A DNA stretch of 64,000 nt from an uncultured Gemmatimonadota bacterium (lineage in GTDB: Bacteria > SM23-81 > DAOVCL01): the NCBI GenBank assembly GCA_964626665.1, contig CAZVGK010000002.1, positions 96,001-160,000 on the forward strand. The letters run 5' to 3'. Shown here piece after piece: positions 46,688 through 58,261 of the stretch. The notes beneath the pieces were generated by a model. It was not told the origin of the DNA, did no database searches, and worked only from the letters and a program-made list of their open reading frames with translations. Position 1 is the stretch's first letter. Every line of letters starts with the position of its first letter. The position numbers and the translations under genes are program-made.

Positions 46688-48210
46688 ATATTCTTGACTT
46701 CCTTTCTCTCCTTTTCCAGTTCCTTTATCCTCCTCTCTGCTGGTCCCTTTCGGTCTAAGCCGAACCTCAATCTGAGTTCTTTCATCTTCATAACTGCCTC
46801 ATAGCTCACATCTACGATCTCCTCTCGGCTCATCGACTCTGTCTCATAGTTAAGCATCAGCTTCCATTCGGGACTTGTGATTGCCTCTATATGATCCTCT
46901 AAACTCCTGAAGAGAAGCCTGTAACCATACCTCTCTGGATTCTCAAAGGCTGGGCTGCCCGGGTCAATAAATGGTTCCAGTGGGGCAATTACTGGCTCTA
47001 TCCTCTGGGGATACCTCTTTTTATATCTTTCCAGAAGGGTTTCTGCATAATCGATGGTCTGGTGGACCGATTTGCGGGTTTGGTGGGGCAGCCCGATCAT
47101 AAAAAACAGTTGAACCTTTGCCGCCCCCGCCTTCAATGCATTTTTGATGGTCTCCTCTAAGCTCTCATTGCTGTAATTTTTCCCAAAGAACTTTCTTATT
47201 CTCTCATCGTGGGTTTCTGGGGAGAGTGAGATGACAAATCTGGGGGTGGCTGAACCTATCTTCTTGAGGAATTCCAACTTTGCTCCCCAGAAAAGCTCAT
47301 ACTTCACCCTGTTTTTAACCCTCTTTTTCCTGATTGCTTCAAGTAACTCCTCTGAGTTGCCCATCCTGATGTCTCCATAAAGGACGATATCAAATGGTGA
47401 AAAGTGGCTAATGATATCCATCTCTTTGGCTATGATCTGAGGGCTTCTCTGGCCTATCTTCTTTCTTCCCAGGGCCCAATTTGATCCTCCACAAGTTACA
47501 CACCTTAAGAGACAGCCTCGACAGGTGATAAGAGCGCTGGCAAATTTCATTGGCCACCTGGTTCCGGTAAGGAGGTTGCCCCTCAGGTCCCTATATTTAA
47601 ATATTGATTTTAAAAGGCTTTTGTAGTTAATCATAATATGCAATTCTTCTGGCAGATAAGAGAAGGGATTGGTGTGGGTTTTGTCATTTTCCTTCCAGGT
47701 CAGATTGGGAACCCGGTGGGGAGATTTGCCGCTTTCGATACATCGCAAAAGTTCAAGTAATGGCCCTTCAGTGGAATCACCTCTGAGCACATAATCAACA
47801 AACGGATATTTGATCAAATCACGGTGATAATAGGATGCCGATAGCCCTCCGAGGATCATCGGGGTCTGGGGATGAACTCTCTTCACTATTTTGGCCACCT
47901 CCAAGCTCCCCTGGGCATGGACCAACCAGTGTAAGTCAAGGCCAAAGGCCATAGGATCAAGCCCCCTGATGAATTTCTCCACAGCGAATTTAGGATGACC
48001 CTTCATCTTAACGGCTAAGTTGACAATCCGTACGGAGAAGCCGTTTCTCTCCAAGAAATCCATTATACTCAGGAATCCGATAGGGAAATACTCAAAGATA
48101 GGGGAACTGGCAATGGTTCCACCAATTAACCCCCAATTTGTCCTCTTCTGGCGGAAGTCATAGAGACTGGGAGGATGAAGCAAGATCAGGTGAGGCGATT
48201 TTCCTTTCAT
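46684..48210 (-). CDS. B12-binding domain/radical SAM protein (TIGR04190-like)
   Basis: LLHPPSLYDFR, DLHWLVH..G, GGLSASYY, CLLRCVTC; likely ATG 48210. Confidence 0.85.
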   Translation of the reverse strand: MKGKSPHLILLHPPSLYDFRQKRTNWGLIGGTIASSPIFEYFPIGFLSIMDFLERNGFSVRIVNLAVKMKGHPKFAVEKFIRGLDPMAFGLDLHWLVHAQGSLEVAKIVKRVHPQTPMILGGLSASYYHRDLIKYPFVDYVLRGDSTEGPLLELLRCIESGKSPHRVPNLTWKENDKTHTNPFSYLPEELHIMINYKSLLKSIFKYRDLRGNLLTGTRWPMKFASALITCRGCLLRCVTCGGSNWALGRKKIGQRSPQIIAKEMDIISHFSPFDIVLYGDIRMGNSEELLEAIRKKRVKNRVKYELFWGAKLEFLKKIGSATPRFVISLSPETHDERIRKFFGKNYSNESLEETIKNALKAGAAKVQLFFMIGLPHQTRKSVHQTIDYAETLLERYKKRYPQRIEPVIAPLEPFIDPGSPAFENPERYGYRLLFRSLEDHIEAITSPEWKLMLNYETESMSREEIVDVSYEAVMKMKELRLRFGLDRKGPAERRIKELEKERKEVKNI

Positions 48211-48377
48211 TGTAGCTATCCTTTCATATTCAGGGCCAAACCGAATTTCAGGGGGTATGGAGCTCCTGACGAAAGATAACCTACATTGCCATTTTGTCAA
48301 GCTCTTTGGGCTCCTTGGATCTTCAGGTAGTTAACCTTTGACATTTTGGAATTTCTCAGAGAATTCGAAGCATCCTG

Positions 48378-48523
48378 ATGAGACCCACCAGGTTATTGAG
48401 GCAAGCGAGAACGACAGGAATTCTGTAAAAGTGACCACCCATCCTACGGCACACCATTACATCTCCCCCCTGGACCATTAGGAAATTATCGGGCCACACT
48501 CTACCGGCCCTCGCTTGCCTCTT
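48378..48523 (-). ncRNA. Candidate structured RNA, copy 1 (family unassigned)
   Basis: 12-bp closing stem GAGGCAAGCGAG/CTCGCTTGCCTC; conserved blocks shared with 54428-54578. Confidence 0.55.
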
Positions 48524-48569
48524 CTCCATCAACTTAGTCCTTGACAAATCAGACGAGCTTCCCTATCTT

Positions 48570-48605
48570 TAAAAAGCAAAGGCCACCGTTGCTGGTGACC
48601 TCTGC
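48570..48605 (-). terminator. Intrinsic terminator after the large secreted protein gene
   Basis: GCAGAGGTCACC-agcaac-GGTGGCCTTTGC-TTTTT. Confidence 0.7.
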
Positions 48606-48629
48606 GCCCAAGCCGGATCTGGGTCGGGG

Positions 48630-51600
48630 CTATCGCAAGAGCAACATCTTCCTGGTGAAGATGTAATCACCCGCCCGGATCCGGTAAAAGTAAATTCCAC
48701 TGGCCAGACTTTTCCCTTTAGCACTTCTTCCATCCCAGGTGACCCTGTGGATTCCCGCCTCCTTTTGCCCATCTACCAAGGTAACTACCCTTTGACCGAG
48801 CAAATTATAAACCTCCATTTTGACATAGACGCGGTGGGAGATGCAGTATTCTATGTTAGTCGCCGAGTTGAACGGATCTGGATAATTCTGACCCAAGGAG
48901 AAAGTAATTGGCTGTTGATTCTGAGGGTGGGTTTCCACCTCCGTCTCCTCTACTACCTCGAATACCCCATCAACCAAGGTTGGGCGATCCACAGGACTGT
49001 TGTCATAGCTGGCCAGGTCGTTAAAGTAGTATCGGGACTGGTCAAATACAACGGGGTAATCTCCCAATGGAGCATCAGGCGAGATGGTGAACACCACCTT
49101 AGCTATAGGACCAGATCCTATAGGCATTGGATAGCAGGTATCTGAACTCCAGTCCTCATAAATGCCCAAGACATTGACCACTCCAGAATCAATTCGGACT
49201 GAAAAGATTTTAAACGAATCCGTGCGAGTGGTGCGTTCCACCCTGGTAGCAGTTAGTATTGAGCTGTCAAAGGCAATCTGGAAATCAAATGCCGCAAGCA
49301 CAAAGGAGTTGACCAAGGAGACAGGTAGAACAATCCCTGTATCCCCTGGAGAGCCCGTGGCACCTTCCACTATCAGGCTATCCTTATCGCTGGGATCACC
49401 CATCATAGCAAGGCTCCCAGAGGATTTCTCCTCCTGAGGGGGGCCGACTGAACCATTGATGATATTCACCAGATAACAAAGGTCAGCAATAGTCCAGTAA
49501 TGTCCATCTCCATTCAGATCAGAGGCAATTTCCTGCTCCTCATCTGGACAGTCATCATCGGCAATATCAATGTGTTCCTTAATATATTCTATCCAAAACA
49601 CAGCATCATCAACTGTATATGCCTGCCTATCACAGTTCACATCGCTCAGGATATATGGGTATTCGGGAATGCCATGTGCCGCCCAAAGATTCCTCATCGC
49701 CTCCGAAGCACCATATATATCAGACCAGCCCGTGCAGAATTGCCTGATGTTGTAGGGGTTGTGGTCGTTAACCTTGAATACATCCAGGACAGACCATATC
49801 GTTAAGTAGATCTCGCTAACCCCCACATCATTATTGCAGTCATCCACATCGTCATCAGAGTCATACATATCCCACAAAAGGGCAGTTACCTGGGCCTCGA
49901 TGCTGTCACCGGGAAGTGGACAGGGTTCGGTTCTGCCACTGGGACAGGGCTCACCCACCGGCATCAGAGTGTCACAGCAGTTCTCACCGTTCATACAATA
50001 ATAGAACCCCTCATTTGCCATTCTATTCAAAAATCGCGGATCATCATTAACCGCCATACTGAAGAAGTTGGCCCATCCCTCACAGTATGCACTGTTTGGA
50101 TGTTGAGGCTTAGACCAATAGTGAGTTCCACCAATATGGGGAGGAATACTACTACCCCCATACCCGAACATAACATAGTGACCATATTCATGATAGATCG
50201 CGTTCTCATCCCATTGATCCTCATCTCCGGCATCAGAACGAATCGTTATCACGCGGTCACTTAGTCTATATCCGCTCCCGTGGATTTCTGGCCCCCACTC
50301 AACCTCAACCCTATCCGGCGGTGTCCCGATGGTGGCAAAATCTCTGGCGATCCCGGTTGTCCGACAGATGTTTAGCGCCGAAGAGATATTCCAGTCCGAC
50401 TCACAAGTCCAGGTTCCCCAGTCTAAAATGTCATTGTCAGGGATTAACTGGGCAACATTTTCGCAATAAACATACCTCCCCCAGACATGGTCATGATCGT
50501 CATTTACAAAGACATCAGCCGCTTCTGCCTGTGAGATAATCCAAACCTGGACGTAGCAAATGTTAACATTCTCAAATGTCCAATGGCCGGTGTTGTCGGT
50601 ATAAGTCACCTCTACCTGTTCACCAGTATCACCATCAATCAACCTGATCTGAGTATTGGGACAGACCCGGGTATCTCCTGGTTCTTTCCCATAAACATAT
50701 TGGTAAATACCATGCAGAGAAAAGTTGGCGATAACCCGCACACTTCCTCCATAATAATCCTGTCCTCCGTAGGATGCCCAGATTTCTCCTGTTCCCGCAG
50801 AGCTCCCAGCGTTGAGTATGGCCTTGTGAGTAGTAAGATTCTCCTCCACGCTTCCTAAACTGGATGGCGTTACCCACCAACTATCCATATCCACCACATT
50901 CCCCCATTGATCTTCAAACCAGAATTCTACGGCGGATGGATGGTTGACAACAGCCTGGATGTCATAGCTCCCCTTGGGAGATGACTCATTCAGCTTGAGG
51001 GGTATCCCGATGCCCGGGTTCTTTTTTCTCCATAGTTCATGCGATAAGCTATCATACTCCTGCTGCAGGCTGTCCAGGAGAGCGCTGAGGCTGTCTTGGT
51101 CAACAGAGTCACAAGGAGCTATTTCCCTGCCCTTGGCATCAAGTCGCGGGGCAACATTAAGCAAGGGCGGTCCCCACCTAACCCCAGGGGGATGCCCACT
51201 TGTGTCCTTTGGCACCTTACCCTCCTCAACCTCTTTCAGCTCCTTCTTCAGTTCCTCAATCGCCTTCTTGATCATCTTAACCCTGGGGTCCGGAGCACCC
51301 TTAACCTTGATCTGGATTACTTTATCACCAAATCCAGAGACGGAATACTTTTTTTCTCCACTGGGATAATAACCCTTAACATCGAAATAACCATAGCATA
51401 GAAAGCGTTCCCTCTCGACCGGTTTAATCACAATCTCTCGTACAACAGTTTCACCCATGCCTGCAGCCCCGCTCCAAAGGGTATCCCCGCTTATGACTTC
51501 CATTCCTCCTGGTATTTTAAATCTGATAGTTGCCTTTTCTGCCACCAGTCTGCCGCCCGCTGAACATTCCAACCGAAGGGTTACCTCCTCATTTAAGTCG

Positions 51601-51791
51601 GGATTTATCTCTGTGGCAAAAAGTTTGATCTCAGGCCCTGTGCTTGAGCCTCCTATATCAGAATAGGGAAACTTGGGATTGGTAGTGGCAGTGTCGGAAT
51701 TGGAGGTCTCAGAAGTGATGATTGTAGCCAGGGTTTGCACTGACAATACCAGTGCAAACAGGACGATCAATAAGTTTAAGACCCGTTTCAT
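48630..51791 (-). CDS. Secreted multidomain zinc metalloprotease-like protein with dockerin-like, cohesin-like and FlgD-Ig/T9SS-type C-terminal domains
   Basis: Start ATG 51791 with signal peptide; HEYGH..EGWANF (gluzincin-like); SDVNCD/SDLNGDG repeats; LPVSL..FDFQIAFD; QNYPDPFN..WDG..SGIYFYRI..KMLLLR. Confidence 0.85.
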   Translation of the reverse strand: MKRVLNLLIVLFALVLSVQTLATIITSETSNSDTATTNPKFPYSDIGGSSTGPEIKLFATEINPDLNEEVTLRLECSAGGRLVAEKATIRFKIPGGMEVISGDTLWSGAAGMGETVVREIVIKPVERERFLCYGYFDVKGYYPSGEKKYSVSGFGDKVIQIKVKGAPDPRVKMIKKAIEELKKELKEVEEGKVPKDTSGHPPGVRWGPPLLNVAPRLDAKGREIAPCDSVDQDSLSALLDSLQQEYDSLSHELWRKKNPGIGIPLKLNESSPKGSYDIQAVVNHPSAVEFWFEDQWGNVVDMDSWWVTPSSLGSVEENLTTHKAILNAGSSAGTGEIWASYGGQDYYGGSVRVIANFSLHGIYQYVYGKEPGDTRVCPNTQIRLIDGDTGEQVEVTYTDNTGHWTFENVNICYVQVWIISQAEAADVFVNDDHDHVWGRYVYCENVAQLIPDNDILDWGTWTCESDWNISSALNICRTTGIARDFATIGTPPDRVEVEWGPEIHGSGYRLSDRVITIRSDAGDEDQWDENAIYHEYGHYVMFGYGGSSIPPHIGGTHYWSKPQHPNSAYCEGWANFFSMAVNDDPRFLNRMANEGFYYCMNGENCCDTLMPVGEPCPSGRTEPCPLPGDSIEAQVTALLWDMYDSDDDVDDCNNDVGVSEIYLTIWSVLDVFKVNDHNPYNIRQFCTGWSDIYGASEAMRNLWAAHGIPEYPYILSDVNCDRQAYTVDDAVFWIEYIKEHIDIADDDCPDEEQEIASDLNGDGHYWTIADLCYLVNIINGSVGPPQEEKSSGSLAMMGDPSDKDSLIVEGATGSPGDTGIVLPVSLVNSFVLAAFDFQIAFDSSILTATRVERTTRTDSFKIFSVRIDSGVVNVLGIYEDWSSDTCYPMPIGSGPIAKVVFTISPDAPLGDYPVVFDQSRYYFNDLASYDNSPVDRPTLVDGVFEVVEETEVETHPQNQQPITFSLGQNYPDPFNSATNIEYCISHRVYVKMEVYNLLGQRVVTLVDGQKEAGIHRVTWDGRSAKGKSLASGIYFYRIRAGDYIFTRKMLLLR

Positions 51792-51811
51792 TTCAAACAC
51801 CTCTTTCCTTT

Positions 51812-51874
51812 CTAAAAGGTTAACAACCCTGGATACCCTGATTGAGCATCCGCTACCTCCTTGAGCTTCTCCAT
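51812..51874 (-). CDS. Candidate 20-aa leader ORF MEKLKEVADAQSGYPGLLTF, copy 1
   Basis: AAGGAGGT SD 4 nt before ATG; conserved in three copies. Confidence 0.45.
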   Translation of the reverse strand: MEKLKEVADAQSGYPGLLTF

Positions 51875-52013
51875 CCACACCTCCTTTCAATTGAGAGTTT
51901 AAGGTTTACTTTTCCTTTTGATTTACAAACCAGATAATTACAAAGTGTTCTTATAGTTGCTCTATCTATGAAGCTCTTCTCTTAAAAATACAGGATATTT
52001 ATTGATGTTCTCT

Positions 52014-52868
52014 TTAAGATTTAAGGAACTGTGTTCTTTTGACTTTACCCTCTCCTACCGCCTGGAGATCATAGCTCCCCTTGGGAGATGACTCATTAAG
52101 CTTGAGGGGTATCCCGATGCCCGGGTTCTTCTTCCTGTATAGTTCATGCGATAAGCTATCATACTCCTGCTGCAAGCTATCCAGGATAGCTCTCAAGCTA
52201 TCAGGGATAAGAGTATCAGCGGGGACTACTTCCACTCCGCTGGGGGTAAGCTTTGGAGCGCCAAATAAGGGCTCGACAATTCTAAACCCAGGGGGATGCC
52301 CACTTGTGTCCTTTGGCACCTTACCCTCCTCAACCTCCTTCAGCTCCTTCTTCAACTCCTCAATCGCCTTTTTGATCATCTTTATCCTGGGATCCGGTGT
52401 GCCTTTAACAATAAAATCTAGTGAGCGACACTCTGCAAGTCCCCGCTTTCCTTCTGAAAAGACAAATCCCCCAAAGATCCGGAAACGCCGTCTTTGGGTT
52501 GGTTTTACCACGAGTTCTCTAACTGCCTTTCCCCCCTTCTCCATATTAACTGTCCAAACAGTGTCATTGCTTACAACTTCAACCCACGAAGGAATCCTGT
52601 AAAACAGAATAGTTGAGTTTGGGGCATTAATAAGAGGGCTGCATTCGAGTCTAAAAGTAATTAGCTCATTAAGATCAACCTCCATTTTCGCTCTATCTGC
52701 AGAAAGCTTAATTTGTACTGGGGCCACCTGCATTTCACCGCCACCACTATCTACATAAACAAACTCGGTTTGGCTCTTTTTCTCCGTTGAAATCCCATCA
52801 AGTGCCAGGGTAGCCTGCACTGGAAAAAACAGTACTACCAATATGATTACCACCAAGACCCGTTTCAT
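52014..52868 (-). CDS. Secreted protein, stand-alone homolog of the protease N-terminal region (variant N-domain)
   Basis: Signal peptide; shares KAIEELKKELKEVEEGKVPKDTSGHPPG and LDSLQQEYDSLSHEL..SPKGSYD with 48630-51791. Confidence 0.75.
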   Translation of the reverse strand: MKRVLVVIILVVLFFPVQATLALDGISTEKKSQTEFVYVDSGGGEMQVAPVQIKLSADRAKMEVDLNELITFRLECSPLINAPNSTILFYRIPSWVEVVSNDTVWTVNMEKGGKAVRELVVKPTQRRRFRIFGGFVFSEGKRGLAECRSLDFIVKGTPDPRIKMIKKAIEELKKELKEVEEGKVPKDTSGHPPGFRIVEPLFGAPKLTPSGVEVVPADTLIPDSLRAILDSLQQEYDSLSHELYRKKNPGIGIPLKLNESSPKGSYDLQAVGEGKVKRTQFLKS

Positions 52869-52888
52869 CTTAAACACCTCTTTCCTTT

Positions 52889-52951
52889 CTAAAAGGTTAA
52901 CAACCCTGGATACCCTGATTGAGCATCCGCTACCTCCTTGAGCTTCTCCAT
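52889..52951 (-). CDS. Candidate 20-aa leader ORF, copy 2
   Basis: Identical to copy 1. Confidence 0.45.
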   Translation of the reverse strand: MEKLKEVADAQSGYPGLLTF

Positions 52952-53090
52952 CCACACCTCCTTTCAATTGAGAGTTTAAGGTTTACTTTTCCTTTTGATT
53001 TACAAACCAGATAATTACAAAGTGTTCTTATAGTTGCTCTATCTATGAAGCTCTTCTCTTAAAAATACAGGATATTTATTGATGTTCTCT

Positions 53091-53978
53091 TTAAGATTTA
53101 AGGAACTGTGTTCTTTTGACTTTACCCTCTCCTACCGCCTGGAGATCATAGCTCCCCTTGGGAGATGACTCATTAAGCTTGAGGGGTATCCCGATGCCCG
53201 GGTTCTTCTTCCTGTATAGTTCATGCGATAAGCTATCATACTCCTGCTGCAAGCTATCCAGGATAGCTCTCAAGCTATCAGGGATAAGAGTATCAGCGGG
53301 GACTACTTCCACTCCGCTGGGGGTAAGCTTTGGAGCGCCAAATAAGGGCTCGACAATTCTAAACCCAGGGGGATGCCCACTTGTGTCCTTTGGCACCTTA
53401 CCCTCCTCAACCTCCTTCAGCTCCTTCTTCAGCTTCTCAATCGCCTTTTTGAGCATCTTCACCCTGGGGTCTGGAGCGCCCTTAACCTTGATCTGGATTC
53501 CCTTATCACCAAATCCAGAGACGGAATACTTCTTGCCTCCATTAACATAATAACCCTTAACATCGAAATAACCATAGCAGAGAAAGCGTTCCCTCTTGAC
53601 CGGTTTAATCACGATCTCTTGCACAACAGTTTCATCCCTGGCTACAGCCCCGCTCCAAAGGGTATCCCCGCTTATGACTTCCATTCCTCCTGGTATTTTG
53701 AATCTGATAGTTGCCTTTTCTGCCTCCACTCTACCACCAGGTGAACATTCTAATCGAAGGGTTATCACCTCATTTAAGTCGGGATTTATCTCTGTGGCAA
53801 AAAGCTTGATCCTCGGCCCTGTGCTCGAGCCCCACTTAGCAGAATAGGGAAACTTGGGATTGGTAGTGGTAGTATAAGACTTGGTGGATGTGGACTTAGA
53901 TGTGTCCACTGTAGCCATAGCTTGCACTAAGAATACCAGTGCAACGAGGACAATCAATAAGCCTAAAATCCGTTTCAT
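53091..53978 (-). CDS. Secreted protein, stand-alone homolog of the protease N-terminal region
   Basis: N-half closely matches 48630-51791; C-half identical to 52014-52868. Confidence 0.78.
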   Translation of the reverse strand: MKRILGLLIVLVALVFLVQAMATVDTSKSTSTKSYTTTTNPKFPYSAKWGSSTGPRIKLFATEINPDLNEVITLRLECSPGGRVEAEKATIRFKIPGGMEVISGDTLWSGAVARDETVVQEIVIKPVKRERFLCYGYFDVKGYYVNGGKKYSVSGFGDKGIQIKVKGAPDPRVKMLKKAIEKLKKELKEVEEGKVPKDTSGHPPGFRIVEPLFGAPKLTPSGVEVVPADTLIPDSLRAILDSLQQEYDSLSHELYRKKNPGIGIPLKLNESSPKGSYDLQAVGEGKVKRTQFLKS

Positions 53979-53998
53979 CTTAAAAACCTCTTTTCTTT

Positions 53999-54061
53999 CT
54001 AAAAGGTTAACAGCCCTGGATACTCAAATTGAGTATCCGCTACCCTCCTGAGTTTCTCCAT
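53999..54061 (-). CDS. Candidate 20-aa leader ORF MEKLRRVADTQFEYPGLLTF, copy 3
   Basis: Diverged, but same length, SD, start and stop. Confidence 0.45.
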   Translation of the reverse strand: MEKLRRVADTQFEYPGLLTF

Positions 54062-54179
54062 CTGCACCTCCTTTCAGTTGGGTTTCCCCCCATACAGCAC
54101 CGCCTTCCTATATCTAAGCATCAAAAATGGGATTAGTCAAGATGTTTCCAAGCACTGGGAATATAGATAGTATAATCCA

Positions 54180-54341
54180 CTACCAATCATCCAAGTCCTT
54201 CCATTTCCCTTCCTCTGAGGCCCTCCTCTCTAGTGCATTGGAGATAAGCCTTTTGATCTTTTGCCAAAGGCTTTTCTTGGAGGGTTTCTCCTGGTCAAGC
54301 TCTAACTTTGGTTTCGGCTTTATCTTAGGATCAGAATTCAT
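54180..54341 (-). CDS. Small basic hypothetical protein (53 aa)
   Basis: MNSDPKIKPKPKLELDQEKPSKKSLWQKIKRLISNALERRASEEGKWKDLDDW; GGAGGAG upstream but at long spacing. Confidence 0.45.
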   Translation of the reverse strand: MNSDPKIKPKPKLELDQEKPSKKSLWQKIKRLISNALERRASEEGKWKDLDDW

Positions 54342-54427
54342 AGTGAATGTAAGACTCCTCCTACAACAAAAGGTGGAAGGTGTATGGTTAAAAGTAATAG
54401 GGGACCTGGCGGGTCCCAGACCCCTCA

Positions 54428-54578
54428 ATGAGACCCACCAGGTTGTTGAGACAATGCGAGGGCAAACCGGAATTCTGCGTGACCAAGCTCATCCGAGGGC
54501 ACTCCACCTCACAATAGCTCCCCCCTGGGATATAAGGAGGCTATTGGGTCACCTCTACCCTGCCCTCGCTTGCCTCTT
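54428..54578 (-). ncRNA. Candidate structured RNA, copy 2 (family unassigned)
   Basis: Same fold as 48378-48523 with compatible and G-U substitutions. Confidence 0.55.
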
Positions 54579-54614
54579 GGTGACAGTTCACCACGGAACC
54601 TCACAGGAAAAAAG

Positions 54615-54892
54615 CAATTAAGAATTAAAAATGAAATTTTCCTGTGCTGGTAGGATGGGAAACCCTTAGGGCTGGAAAATGGAAATTTAGTCTGAGCTGG
54701 TAGGTGCTCTCATCTGACAGTACCACCACCGAGCCGTCAGAACCCCGATTCTGACGGCAAAGGTAGATGGCAGAATCAGGGTTTTGCCACCTCATAATCT
54801 AACCGCAAAGACGCAAAGAACGCAGAGTTTAACGATCTACGAACTACAATCCTCTTATTCGTGAAGATTCGTCCATTCGTGCCATTCGTGTT
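54615..54892. repeat. Pile-up of several palindromic/short-period repeat families
   Basis: GAGCCGTCAGAACCCCGATTCTGACGGC, TGGCAGAATC..TTGCCACCTC, CGCAAAGACGCAAAGAACGCAGAG, ATTCGTG tandem units. Confidence 0.7.
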
Positions 54893-55065
54893 CCTTATTG
54901 GAAGGGGTGGCAGGCAAGGGAGAGCCTACGGGGCATCTCCGCTATTTTATGTTTCCCAAAATGCTGCTTCCAACCACCAAGCAAGAACAAGGCAGCATCG
55001 ACCCTCTCCTTGCCCGCCTTTTAAGCCACGGACATAAGCGGAGACATTTACATTTTTATTCATGT

Positions 55066-55081
55066 AGCAAAAAGTGTGCCT
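55066..55081 (-). promoter_or_regulatory. Sigma54 promoter facing the RNA motif and secreted-protein genes
   Basis: AGGCACACTTTTTGCT (GG-N10-GC). Confidence 0.75.
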
Positions 55082-55196
55082 GAATTGGCCGAAAAAATAA
55101 AAAAGCACTTAGCGAACTAAGTGCCTCAAAAACATAGAGATATTCAACTTGTGAAAAGATGGTTATATCAACTCTTATTAAAACAAAAGCCTATTC

Positions 55197-55297
55197 GTCC
55201 ATTTTTGGACATCATTTTTTGGGCTTACAGAATATCTGTTTATTTAACAAATAGTTAGGAGCGACCAAAAAAGAACGCTATTTGACCAAATTTGGAC
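55197..55297. promoter_or_regulatory. Pair of palindromic candidate enhancer (UAS) sites
   Basis: GTCCAtttTTGGAC (55197-55210) and GACCAaatTTGGAC (55284-55297), 115-215 bp upstream of the sigma54 site. Confidence 0.6.
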
Positions 55298-55315
55298 ACT
55301 CATCCAATAGAATCC

Positions 55316-58261
55316 TCACTCGCCTTCGGTATAAATATTGAGCTTTTTCATTTTGTTGTGTAAGGTAGTGCGTGGAACTCCCAACATGTTTGCCGCTTCA
55401 GTAATCTTCCAATTGCTCTTTTCCAAAGCCGTTAAGCACTCCTCTCTCTCCATCAAAGCTATCTTCTCAGGAAGGGAACCCCCCTTTGGTGGAAGAACAG
55501 ATGCTCTTTTCTTGCCAATCTCCACCAGAGATGGTGTTATTATATCCCCATCTGCCAAGGTTACAGCCCTGCGGATCAGGTTCTTCACTTCCCGCACATT
55601 TCCTGGAAAATCATACTCCATCAGCTTCTCCATGGCCTCTGGGGTCATAATCTTCTTGTGGTGATTCTCTCGGTTAAATCTCTCCAGAAAATAGTTCACT
55701 AATAAAGGCATATCCCCTTTCCTCTGGCGTAAGGGAGGAAGCTCTATGGGAAAACAGTTCAACCTGTAGAAAACATCCTCTCTGAATCTCCCTGCATTCA
55801 CTTCAGCTTGCAAATCCTTGTTGGTGGCTGCAATTACCCTTACATCCACTTTTCTCCACCTGTTATCACCTCTCCTCTGCATCTCTCCTTCCTCCAATAT
55901 CCGCAAGAGCTTTACCTGAAGATCAGGCTTCAAAGTGGAGATTTCATCTAAGAAGATACTTCCCCCATTTGCCTCCTCAAATTTCCCCCTCCGCTCCTGA
56001 GTGGCCCCGGTAAAGGCTCCCTTGATATGGCCAAACAGTTCATCCTCTAGCAGTGACTCCGTTATGCTTGCACAATCCACCGTAACAAATGGCCCCAAAG
56101 CCCTCTGGCTGCTATAATGAATCAGCTTGGCTATCAGCTCCTTGCCAGTCCCAGATTTCCCGGTTAGCAATACCCCCTCCAGCGCGTCTTTTATCTTTTC
56201 TACTACCCTGAGAACCTCCTTCATCTTTTTGTCATCGGTTATCAGCCGGGAAAATCCATAGCTGTCCGCTATCTGATAAGCTTTCAAAACCAGGTTCTCA
56301 GCCTCCAAGCCCTCTACCCTTAGCTCGTCAACTACCCTGTGTATATGCTCAGATGCCGCTACAAAGAATTGCACATCCTCCTGCCTCCACCCTCCCCGAT
56401 CAGGCTTTTGGGCCAGATACAGTATCCCATCCAGCCTCTCCTTTAACCCCAGGGGCATAACCAACAGGGCCCCCACCTTAAGGGAGGAGAACTTCCCATC
56501 GGCAGAGAGCTTCACTGTAAGCCTCCCAGGTTCAAAGGAATTGGTAGCCAAAAGATGCAGTACCTTCTCAGCTTCTTCCTCCCTCAACTTCACTCTCTCC
56601 GCTACCTTTAGACCATCGGTCTCCCTGTAGGCAACAAAGCCCTGATCTGCCCCCACCCTCTCGGCAATGGTATGAAGGAGGCTTTTTAAATGATTCCTCA
56701 ACCCAGCCTCAGATGTGGGCTTGAAGGATAGCTCCTTAAGAAGCAGGTAGGGGTTCTCCTCGGAGTCGGTGGCGCTATCAAGCCGGCTCTCCACCTGAGA
56801 GCGGAGCCTTGCCGTCACTTTCAGAGCCTCTTTCTCACCCAACAGAGTCTCAGCTTCGGCTATGAAATTTAAAACCTCATCGGAATGGGAGAAGAGGAGC
56901 TCAACCCGGGCCATCTCCAGCTTAGCCAAACCACGGTAGTGTCCACATCCAGGCCCCATATCAGAGAACAAACGATCAGCCTCCTGGAGGAGCTCCAGCC
57001 CCCGTTCCCTTTCTTTGAGTGCGGAGGCGGTGAATCTGCCCTGTTCCAATAATGTCCTGCCTAGTTCGAACCTGTCCTCTATGGACTCCAGAACCCTAAC
57101 CGCTTTCTGAAAACTTTCCTTGGCTCCATCTAGGTTGCCCTGAGCCTCAAAGATAAGAGCCTGCACTCTGTAACAACAACCCTCTTCAAACTTATCCCCT
57201 AAAGATTGAGAGATCCTGAGGGCTTCTTGAACACATTCTGAGGCTTCATCAAGGCCTTTTCCCTCAGCTAAGAAAAGCTCTGCCCTTCTCCTCTGCACCT
57301 GGTTTATCAAATCCTTCTGCCCCAGCCTTCTCCCTATGTCCAATGTCCTCTGGTAGCAGTCCCTGGCAAGCCCAAGATCTCCTCTCTCCTTGGCCACATC
57401 TGCCAGGGATTCAAGAGACATCGCTTCAGCCCTTTCATAACTGTGGGCTTGACTTAAAGCTAAGGATTTTTTCAGCAATTCTTCTGAGCCGCCAAGGTCT
57501 CTTTGGAGAGCCTTCAGACGTCCAAGGGATATATATCCATGAGCTAAATGAATTGGATCGCTCATTTTTTTCTTAATCTTAAGACTCCGATTTAAGTAAT
57601 CCTCTGCCTTTGCCCACCTCCCCGTTTTCCGGTAAAGCATTCCTATATTATTCAAGATAAGGGCTTCATTCCGCTTGTTTTCCCTTTTTTGAGCAATGCT
57701 TAAGCCCTCTTTTAAATTGACAAGAGCCTGTTTATAATCAGAGGTGGCGAAGTCTACATTGGCAAGGTAGTTATAGACAATCAACATCTCCATTTCATCA
57801 TCTGCACGACGGAACGTGGATAGGCTATCCTGGAGGAATTTCCTTCCCCGCAAATAATCGCCCAACTGAGCAAATGCTCGGCCAATGAATTTCTGACAGA
57901 GCCCTACAATTTTATGCTGGGCTGTCCCTTTGTAGGATTCATAAATCTTCATGCTGAGATCCTTGGCCTCTTCATCCCTCCCCATCTCCAGTAATACCCT
58001 GGTGAGAAGCAGCCGTGTTCTGGCCAATTCTATCTCATCTCCCAACCGAGCAAAGCTCTCTTCTGCTTCCCTCGCCTCTTTGAGGGCTGAGTTCAAGTCT
58101 CCACTTCTCAGATAACAATAGGCCAACTCCCCCTTAATCTTTGCCTTCTCTTTAGGCTTTGCCTTCTTAAGGGCCTTTTCGTAAAGCCCTATCGCCTGGG
58201 AGAACTTCCCAGAGTCTATGTAATTGGTAGCTGACTTAAGCAGATTCTCAAAGCTATCCAT
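55316..58261 (-). CDS. TPR - GAF-like - sigma54 AAA+ - HTH enhancer-binding protein (no receiver domain)
   Basis: About 480 aa of TPR repeats; GKSGTGKE, GHIKGAFTGA, FLDEI, FPGNVRE, LGVPRTTLHNKMKK. Confidence 0.9.
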   Translation of the reverse strand: MDSFENLLKSATNYIDSGKFSQAIGLYEKALKKAKPKEKAKIKGELAYCYLRSGDLNSALKEAREAEESFARLGDEIELARTRLLLTRVLLEMGRDEEAKDLSMKIYESYKGTAQHKIVGLCQKFIGRAFAQLGDYLRGRKFLQDSLSTFRRADDEMEMLIVYNYLANVDFATSDYKQALVNLKEGLSIAQKRENKRNEALILNNIGMLYRKTGRWAKAEDYLNRSLKIKKKMSDPIHLAHGYISLGRLKALQRDLGGSEELLKKSLALSQAHSYERAEAMSLESLADVAKERGDLGLARDCYQRTLDIGRRLGQKDLINQVQRRRAELFLAEGKGLDEASECVQEALRISQSLGDKFEEGCCYRVQALIFEAQGNLDGAKESFQKAVRVLESIEDRFELGRTLLEQGRFTASALKERERGLELLQEADRLFSDMGPGCGHYRGLAKLEMARVELLFSHSDEVLNFIAEAETLLGEKEALKVTARLRSQVESRLDSATDSEENPYLLLKELSFKPTSEAGLRNHLKSLLHTIAERVGADQGFVAYRETDGLKVAERVKLREEEAEKVLHLLATNSFEPGRLTVKLSADGKFSSLKVGALLVMPLGLKERLDGILYLAQKPDRGGWRQEDVQFFVAASEHIHRVVDELRVEGLEAENLVLKAYQIADSYGFSRLITDDKKMKEVLRVVEKIKDALEGVLLTGKSGTGKELIAKLIHYSSQRALGPFVTVDCASITESLLEDELFGHIKGAFTGATQERRGKFEEANGGSIFLDEISTLKPDLQVKLLRILEEGEMQRRGDNRWRKVDVRVIAATNKDLQAEVNAGRFREDVFYRLNCFPIELPPLRQRKGDMPLLVNYFLERFNRENHHKKIMTPEAMEKLMEYDFPGNVREVKNLIRRAVTLADGDIITPSLVEIGKKRASVLPPKGGSLPEKIALMEREECLTALEKSNWKITEAANMLGVPRTTLHNKMKKLNIYTEGE

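Follow-up and report, generated by a model that had tools for sequence, protein, structure and literature searches.

The two copies of a structured motif on the minus strand of the window (the whole 64-kb stretch of DNA analyzed here) belong to no Rfam family and, judged from their sequence, represent a real, new, and narrowly distributed candidate leader RNA. Both copies had been named in a preliminary description of this DNA, and their places and strand were confirmed by reading and by the cores that a covariance model delimits (Table 1). Alignment of copies 1 and 2 together with their flanks showed a similarity that begins with the closing stem and does not extend beyond the tail. When the entire 3.17-Mb genome was searched, copy 2 matched copy 1 with an E value of 1e-18 and a third copy, located on another contig, with an E value of 5e-16; the remaining 12 of the 15 places listed had E values of 1.55 or higher. 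The blocks singled out in the preliminary description were all found, namely the closing stem (P1), GGTAGAG, CAGAATTCC, the GTGRCC/GGTCAC stem, the CTCC..GGAG hairpin, GGATG, and the CCTGGYGGG tail. They are shared by all, or almost all, of the 12 full copies compared, which represent three species.

The motif had not been assignable to any known family, and this held in an Infernal/Rfam check. A scan of the whole window against Rfam 15 gave no match at the gathering score. At E ≤ 10, the region 47500-55500 yielded 10 weak matches (E values of 0.0085 to 7.9), none of which overlapped copy 1 or copy 2. The single match between 54370 and 54600 (E = 9.5) was on the opposite strand, at 54578-54593, outside the core of copy 2.

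Table 1. Features in the window that are related to the two motif copies
Feature	Position	Strand	Remarks
Sigma-70-like promoter match between copy 1 and the B12/radical-SAM gene	48273..48300	-	10 of 12 consensus positions
Motif copy 1, core (type II variant)	48378..48522	-	Covariance model R1, 117.5 bits
Terminator-like hairpin of the gene for a 1086-aa T9SS-tailed protein, upstream of copy 1	48576..48605	-	12 pairs, T-run
Small ORF, first gene after copy 2	54180..54341	-	53 aa, ends in DW
Alternative hairpin GGGACC/GGTCCC of copy 2	54401..54424	-	9 pairs, loop of 6, tail CTATTACTTT, consensus scan
P5 of copy 2	54405..54442	-	14-bp hairpin, 5' strand CCTGGTGGGTCTC..
Motif copy 2, core	54428..54577	-	Covariance model R1, 167.8 bits
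Leader spacer of genome-wide short repeats	54578..54903	-	REP-like palindromes, 39-nt repeat, 55-nt repeat
Module A, another conserved leader element with folding potential, immediately downstream of the sigma-54 site	54904..55047	-	alifold -52.8, 5 copies
Sigma-54 promoter-like site	55066..55081	-	GG and GC elements at -24/-12 spacing, 2 mismatches to 16-nt consensus
Terminator-like hairpin at the end of the activator gene, close upstream of the sigma-54 site	55102..55127	-	
Sigma-54 activator	55316..58261	-	981 aa; TPR, GAF, Sigma54_activat (E = 2.9e-64), HTH_8

The motif was found in a single genus

Beyond the three copies of the window's own genome, 12 more full copies were detected in sister genomes and metagenome contigs. 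A blastn search of copy 2 against 61 genomes gave matches only within the window's genus, whose three genomes contained 3, 3, and 8 places; in genome G002, two of these span just the first ~45 nt. The covariance model R1, built from 12 full copies (alignment A4, 34 pairs), had 12 strong matches (E ≤ 7e-29) and three weak ones in these three genomes and no match in the four other genomes of the phylum (7 in all). Among 151 relatives, R1 matched in the genus only, apart from a 54-nt match (E = 0.005) that consists of a simple hairpin with an end resembling the tail and appears to be due to chance. The motif was not found in the 148 other genomes searched.

Exact-pattern scans returned 16 loci from genome contigs and 13 from metagenome contigs; the pattern requires three exact blocks, and divergent relatives would escape it. 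R1 confirmed copies in 13 of these 29 loci. The loci of Tepidimonas, Anaerolineaceae, Arthrobacter, and Equihabitans had no covariance model match. The confirmed genome records carry the title Candidatus Zixiibacteriota bacterium or just "bacterium" (MAGs). Two metagenome loci had scores identical to those of the window's own copies and were not counted as independent. Three copies were added, L073 (a metagenome locus) as well as L046 and L050 (one further MAG). In the material searched, the motif was not found beyond this genus.

The copies fall into two subtypes that are ~75% identical to each other. Type I comprises copies 2 and 3, three copies of G001, and one copy of G002, and type II comprises copy 1, five copies of G002, L073, L046, and L050. 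One leader of G002 (L021) harbors a tandem pair, two full copies 316 nt apart, the first of which is a hybrid of both subtypes. Copy G2_b is a hybrid of type I and type II, showing that the copies recombine. At L028 and L029 (G002), just the first 60 to 70 nt (up to P3) are kept, followed by unrelated sequence. We also noted a weak model match (19.8 bits) in the window's own genome, on the minus strand of contig C28 (C28:40951-41070, corresponding to L040 1501-1620). It contains a P3-like hairpin and partial loop blocks and may be a badly decayed fourth copy or a chance match.

The conserved unit is predicted to fold into five helices

Anchored folding of each copy gave one architecture in 13 of 14 copies; in the exception, G1_c, the P3/P4 region folds differently. 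The closing helix P1 measures 12 to 16 bp across the copies (16 bp with one bulge in copy 2). It is followed by an internal loop with invariant GGTAGAG and (C)AGAATTCC, which in copy 2 is GGTAGAG/CAGAATTCC. Neither a K-turn nor another named loop motif fitted this loop by eye. P2 (6 bp) opens into a junction that carries the hairpins P3 (9 to 11 bp) and P4 and contains GGATG as a junction strand. The small fourth hairpin that had been reported (GG..GTG.CC) is present as P4, but it is poorly defined (3 to 5 bp, uncertain register) and weakly supported. Altogether, ~30 unpaired bases are invariant (GGTAGAG, CAGAATTCC, GGATG, and GTGCC). As a side observation, the 5' strand of P3 reads CTCCTT, like the end of the genome's own 16S rRNA (contig C22).

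Directly after P1 lies P5, a GC-rich hairpin of 13 to 14 bp that was found in 13 of 14 copies and is absent from copy 1 alone. The conserved tail constitutes the 5' strand of P5, and the 3' strand is located downstream of the interval originally reported. Thus, the 3' tail of the preliminary description is indeed conserved but is not free, being one strand of a hairpin, and the conserved unit comprises ~190 nt instead of 150 nt when P5 is included.

Pair substitutions support the fold and its strand

In single-sequence folding, copies 1 and 2 were just mildly better than shuffled sequences (z scores of -2.3 and -2.5; 4 of 200 shuffles were as good), and therefore the case for the fold rests on conservation and pair substitutions. 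The majority structure (49 pairs) was evaluated on the MAFFT alignment A6 (14 distinct rows, 661 cells). The covariance-model-fitted alignment A5 had register slips in P1 and P3, and therefore the anchored folds and A6 were used instead; the slips that A6 keeps in P1 and upper P3 were counted against the structure. In A6, 89.3% of the cells were paired, compared to 40 to 50% with partners slid by 1 to 3 columns, and 1 of 500 shuffles reached this value. Changes on both sides were seen in 21 cells (0 to 8 when slid), and the covariation score was 0.187 (0.055 to 0.089 when slid); neither value was reached by any of the 500 shuffles. At the level of pairs, 6 of 49 changed on both sides (0 to 5 when slid), a count that 105 of 500 shuffles reached.

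Position 4 of P2 is A-U six times, G-C six times, G-U once, and A-C once, the last in a hybrid copy. Four pairs of P3 change on both sides, with G-C/A-U at two positions and U-A/C-G at another. For P5, 96.2% of the cells pair in A6, and position 10 is C-G in five, U-A in four, and U-G in four cases. P1 shows no double-sided change; it has one-sided (wobble) changes and a few mismatches. P1 to P3 are thus backed by wobble-compatible and compensatory changes, and P4 is weak. Since the alignment contains ~14 closely related sequences in two clades, the covariation figures are supportive and not a proof.

The minimum free energy (MFE) of the forward strand was 8 to 21 kcal/mol below that of the reverse complement in 14 of 14 copies, and 89 of the 710 pairs in the per-copy structures are G-U. 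This agrees with the earlier remark that the G-U changes favor the minus strand. The RNA, if made, would therefore run in the direction of the downstream genes. A conserved reading frame was not found, as each of the six frames has stops in some of the 14 copies, and the core lengths (147 to 159 nt) differ by non-multiples of three. The motif is not protein-coding.

These data also bear on the idea that the motif acts as DNA and not as RNA, for example as a site for the activator or another DNA-binding protein. It contains short palindromes, such as GAATTC within CAGAATTCC, and is located between the activator gene and the genes presumably controlled by the activator. We nevertheless regard a DNA-level site as highly improbable: the strands are asymmetric, with G-U pairs that would be A-C mismatches on the other strand, and long-range compensatory pairs are present, neither of which is expected for such a site, and the motif is downstream, not upstream, of the sigma-54 promoter-like site.

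P5 and its alternatives

A pseudoknot between CCAGG in the P3 loop and CCTGG in the tail had been proposed. Pairing between CCAGG and the tail is possible in copy 1 and the type I copies, 7 of 14 in total; the P3 loops of the other 7 folded copies are devoid of CCAGG, and a C-run takes its place in L073, L050, and the G002 copies of type II. The energy of the loop-tail duplex was matched by 0.9 to 78% of shuffled loops, and in just 2 of 14 copies, both from G001, was it reached by <5% of them. Moreover, the same tail bases are engaged in the first five pairs of P5. Based on the shuffle test, the absence of the pairing from the type II copies of G002, and the engagement of the tail in P5, the pseudoknot was rejected as a defining feature. 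It is unproven and is at most an alternative to P5. By eye, a loop/tail double change in copy 3 keeps the pseudoknot possible in type I.

The GGGACC/GGTCCC hairpin described after copy 2 was recovered by the consensus scan and is terminator-like; this hairpin and P5 are mutually exclusive. By eye, its T-run is not kept in other copies, and the hairpin is terminator-like in copy 2 only. P5 has no T-run and is not listed as a terminator by the consensus scan. A conserved output device was not found, and the ribosome-binding site is 60 to 180 nt away.

The motif is part of a presumed, modular sigma-54 leader

The gene order comprises a sigma-54 activator gene, a promoter-like site, module A, repeats, the motif, a small ORF, and variable secreted proteins. 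In agreement with the earlier assignment of copy 2 to a sigma-54 leader, a promoter-like site was detected 504 nt upstream of it. Using a 16-nt consensus that we take to be that of sigma-54 promoters, sites with 0 to 2 mismatches were detected 272 to 661 nt upstream in 12 of 15 copies. The genome encodes rpoN and 16 strong activator homologues.

Module A forms a long helix with an inner hairpin and a possible crossing pairing, and it had no Rfam match with an E value below 1.1. It is present in the leaders of L019, L017, L020, L018, L026, L027, L073, L046, and L050, and two copies contain an insertion of ~170 nt in the hairpin loop. In the window's own genome, module A occurs twice, in the leaders of copies 2 and 3 only.

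The small ORF behind copy 2 has a homologue of 49 to 59 aa, on the same strand and always ending in DW, after 13 of the 15 copies; the copies without it are copy 1 and one copy at a contig end. The ORF starts 77 to 185 nt after the core in 12 copies and 448 nt after the first copy of the tandem pair. In the encoded proteins, the N-terminal half is Lys-rich (basic) and the C-terminal half is acidic. They match no Pfam family, and a collection of 5.8 billion proteins contained just two matches, one of them the query itself. The DW protein could be an RNA-binding or regulatory partner.

Between module A and the motif, the leaders are mosaics of genome-wide repeats. The REP-like palindrome (CAGAA, a spacer of 5 to 7 nt, and TTCTG, with flanks) is present 178 times in the genome, for example at 54736-54755. 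The 39-nt repeat and the 55-nt repeat have dozens of genome copies each, and the latter directly abuts the type I copies (~54579-54640 in the window). C-rich CTATCACCT-type repeats were also seen just upstream of GGAGG ribosome-binding sites (e.g., in the C12, C15, C9, and L018 leaders). These repeats are similar to the anti-Shine-Dalgarno end of the 16S rRNA encoded in the genome itself (contig C22) and might hide the ribosome-binding site or serve as Rho entry sites.

Given this surrounding, the motif might itself be a low-copy intergenic repeat module that has no RNA function and was spread or homogenized by recombination or gene conversion, its helices being incidental palindromes. Like the REP/MITE-like repeats of the same genome, which belong to several short interspersed families including the 178 REP-like palindromes, it is multicopy, intergenic, and hairpin-rich, and shows signs of recombination. 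Hybrid, tandem, and truncated copies exist, the leaders are mosaics, the motif is optional for the cassette, and copy 1 sits where no promoter is predicted. In contrast to those repeats, the motif has just 3 copies in the genome (35 to 178 for the REP/MITE-like repeats, and tens to hundreds for true repeats), has a length of ~150 to 190 nt with five helices and conserved unpaired blocks, and keeps its gene context, being placed and oriented in the same way with respect to the small ORF in 13 of 15 copies. Further, its ~75%-identical subtypes keep the unpaired blocks and change the stems by wobble or compensation, the strand asymmetry is strong, and the motif is better conserved across species than the adjacent coding ORF (see below). 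We consider a mere repeat module quite unlikely.

Copy 1 resembles a leftover of a former leader

Copy 1 contains P1 to P4 and the tail but lacks the P5 partner strand, and just a 7-bp mini-hairpin is possible. Its R1 score is the lowest among the 12 full copies, and its likeness to the other copies stops inside the would-be P5 loop. The statement that copy 1 lies after a terminator fits the terminator-like hairpin upstream of it (Table 1). The sigma-70-like site on its other side is no more than a match to the consensus; the scan gave 11 sites of this kind, and 10.4 were expected from shuffles. No sigma-54 site was detected within 900 nt of copy 1, and a search for remnants of a small ORF after it gave a 10-nt identity that was not significant (E = 1.3). 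Copy 1 thus looks like a truncated, promoterless leftover of a former leader. The two copies had been said to bracket the secreted-protein cassette, a view that we do not retain: copy 2 is a leader element, copy 1 is devoid of the P5 strand, the small ORF, and the sigma-54 site, and the arrangement is incidental.

The motif is better conserved than its neighbors and is optional

In two cross-species leader pairs, the core was 86 to 87% identical and P5 80 to 84%, compared to 61 to 63% for the small ORF and 48 to 59% for the upstream leader; this comparison assumes orthology of the leaders, and gene conversion could inflate the identities. As the leaders are repeat mosaics and the copies recombine, some of the similarity might stem from gene conversion instead of selection. 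The motif looks to be under selection. The spacer after P5 was 27% identical in one species pair and 89% in the other.

Module A, the repeats, and the motif could together form a stable trans-acting noncoding RNA driven by the sigma-54 promoter, with P5 as a protective 3' hairpin or a terminator without a U-tract and the genes transcribed by read-through or separately. Some sigma-54-dependent sRNAs are encoded beside their activator genes, as in CrcZ-CbrB, Qrr-LuxO, and GlmY-GlrR. The gene order here resembles theirs (activator gene, terminator, sigma-54 promoter, structured noncoding sequence), and the likeness is restricted to gene order. P5 is very stable, GC-rich, and 13 to 14 bp long and forms the 3' edge of the conserved block, after which conservation falls in the species pair with the 27% spacer. 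However, in the other pair the spacer is 89% identical, P5 lacks a T-run, and the scan lists the alternative hairpin and not P5. Unlike in the known sRNA loci, module A and not the motif is directly behind the promoter, the promoter-like site being 272 to 661 nt away, and co-oriented ORFs follow the motif without a clear terminator; repeats of a protein-titration motif were not noticed either. The second full copy in the tandem leader of G002 requires read-through of P5, and the small ORF is kept at a fairly constant distance (77 to 185 nt, 12 copies). On balance, a trans-acting RNA seems unlikely, although it is the strongest of the rival explanations.

The small-ORF family has five members in the genome, and just two of them are associated with the motif. 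The three motif-less cassettes, at C12:3708-3875(-), C15:68022-68189(+), and C9:86474-86629(-), each have an activator and a sigma-54 site. They lack module A and share a different first leader module, which is also present in one leader of G002, indicating that the leaders are modular. Because three of the five small-ORF cassettes lack the motif, it is dispensable, an optional add-on to this cassette type.

A cis-acting leader RNA domain as the tentative reading

We tentatively read the motif as a lineage-specific, cis-acting domain of a leader RNA, giving this reading a little less than an even chance. It would be transcribed as part of an untranslated leader of 0.6 to 0.9 kb, which would start at the sigma-54 promoter, be fired by the activator encoded just upstream, and run into the DW small ORF and then into the genes for variable secreted or T9SS proteins. 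There, the motif may act in cis on the share of the sigma-54 transcript that reaches the downstream genes. The ~30 invariant unpaired bases could provide a binding pocket or surface for a factor, which might be a small molecule or else a protein, for instance the basic product of the small ORF. The output would be exerted via the P5 region, by an effect on elongation, termination, Rho access, or RNA processing. Counted against a cis-acting leader domain are the modest covariation, the lack of an output device, the optional presence in the cassette, and the fold of copy 1, which is kept without a promoter-like site.

If the motif is such a cis-acting domain, a sensing switch and a constitutive element (a stabilizer or anti-termination element) are about equally probable. 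A sensing switch would agree with the conservation of the junctions, with the alternative pairings around P5, and with the presence of a tandem copy. The absence of a conserved helix for a terminator or ribosome-binding site and the strong P5 fit a constitutive element equally well, which might serve stability, processing, or anti-termination through the repeat hairpins.

Riboswitch aptamers generally combine a helical junction with a 3' switching strand. Like them, the motif is a multihelix conserved domain in a presumed 5' leader, on the sense strand of the downstream genes, with invariant unpaired junction bases and stems that vary by compensation; its 3' boundary strand is able to adopt alternative pairings (P5 or the neighboring hairpin), and one arrangement is tandem. 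In contrast to known aptamers, it matches no Rfam model, the genes behind it encode diverse secreted proteins and not a metabolic or transport set indicative of a ligand, no conserved terminator or helix sequestering the ribosome-binding site is tied to it, and the pseudoknot is not above chance. We consider it improbable that the motif serves as the aptamer of a novel class of riboswitches, or as a novel leader that senses a protein, and gates sigma-54-activated secretome cassettes. If this were true, a second, RNA-level input would be added to activator control, possibly a second messenger or an envelope-derived signal, and module A would be a further regulatory RNA in the same leader.

Processive anti-termination leader RNAs, such as EAR of Bacillus eps operons and put of phage HK022, offer another comparison. 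Like these RNAs, the motif would be a cis-acting structured RNA in the leader or between the genes of long operons for exported products, and stable repeat hairpins, which could hinder RNA polymerase, abound in the leaders described here. Unlike them, copy 1 is located after, not before, a terminator-like site, and the motif showed no similarity to an Rfam family.

A full-text literature search retrieved no paper linking Zixibacteria with sigma-54 or riboswitches. If functional, the motif would constitute a new family of structured leader RNAs in an uncultured lineage labeled Candidatus Zixiibacteriota. The layout would be unusual, with long sigma-54 leaders made of at least two conserved RNA modules and genome-wide repeats, followed by a conserved tiny protein and variable secreted or T9SS cargo. 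Such cassettes would be a compact system in which enhancer-dependent transcription is combined with RNA-level control of the secretome. Their value is limited by the narrow distribution in one uncultured genus.

Genes downstream of the small ORF

The small ORF is followed by a gene for a signal-peptide protein of varying kind. In the window, there are three secreted paralogues, the largest of which has a cohesin domain and a T9SS tail; the secreted proteins of the window either match no Pfam family or have this combination. A gene for a B12-binding radical-SAM protein is also annotated in the window. Near-identical stretches were noted on the minus strand upstream of the real starts of the secreted paralogues, at ~51790-51890 and 52870-52967, with a similar one near 54064, and the predicted frames of the paralogues begin with an identical 32-residue prefix. 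These similarities suggest that an intergenic or ribosome-site region was duplicated by tandem gene duplication.
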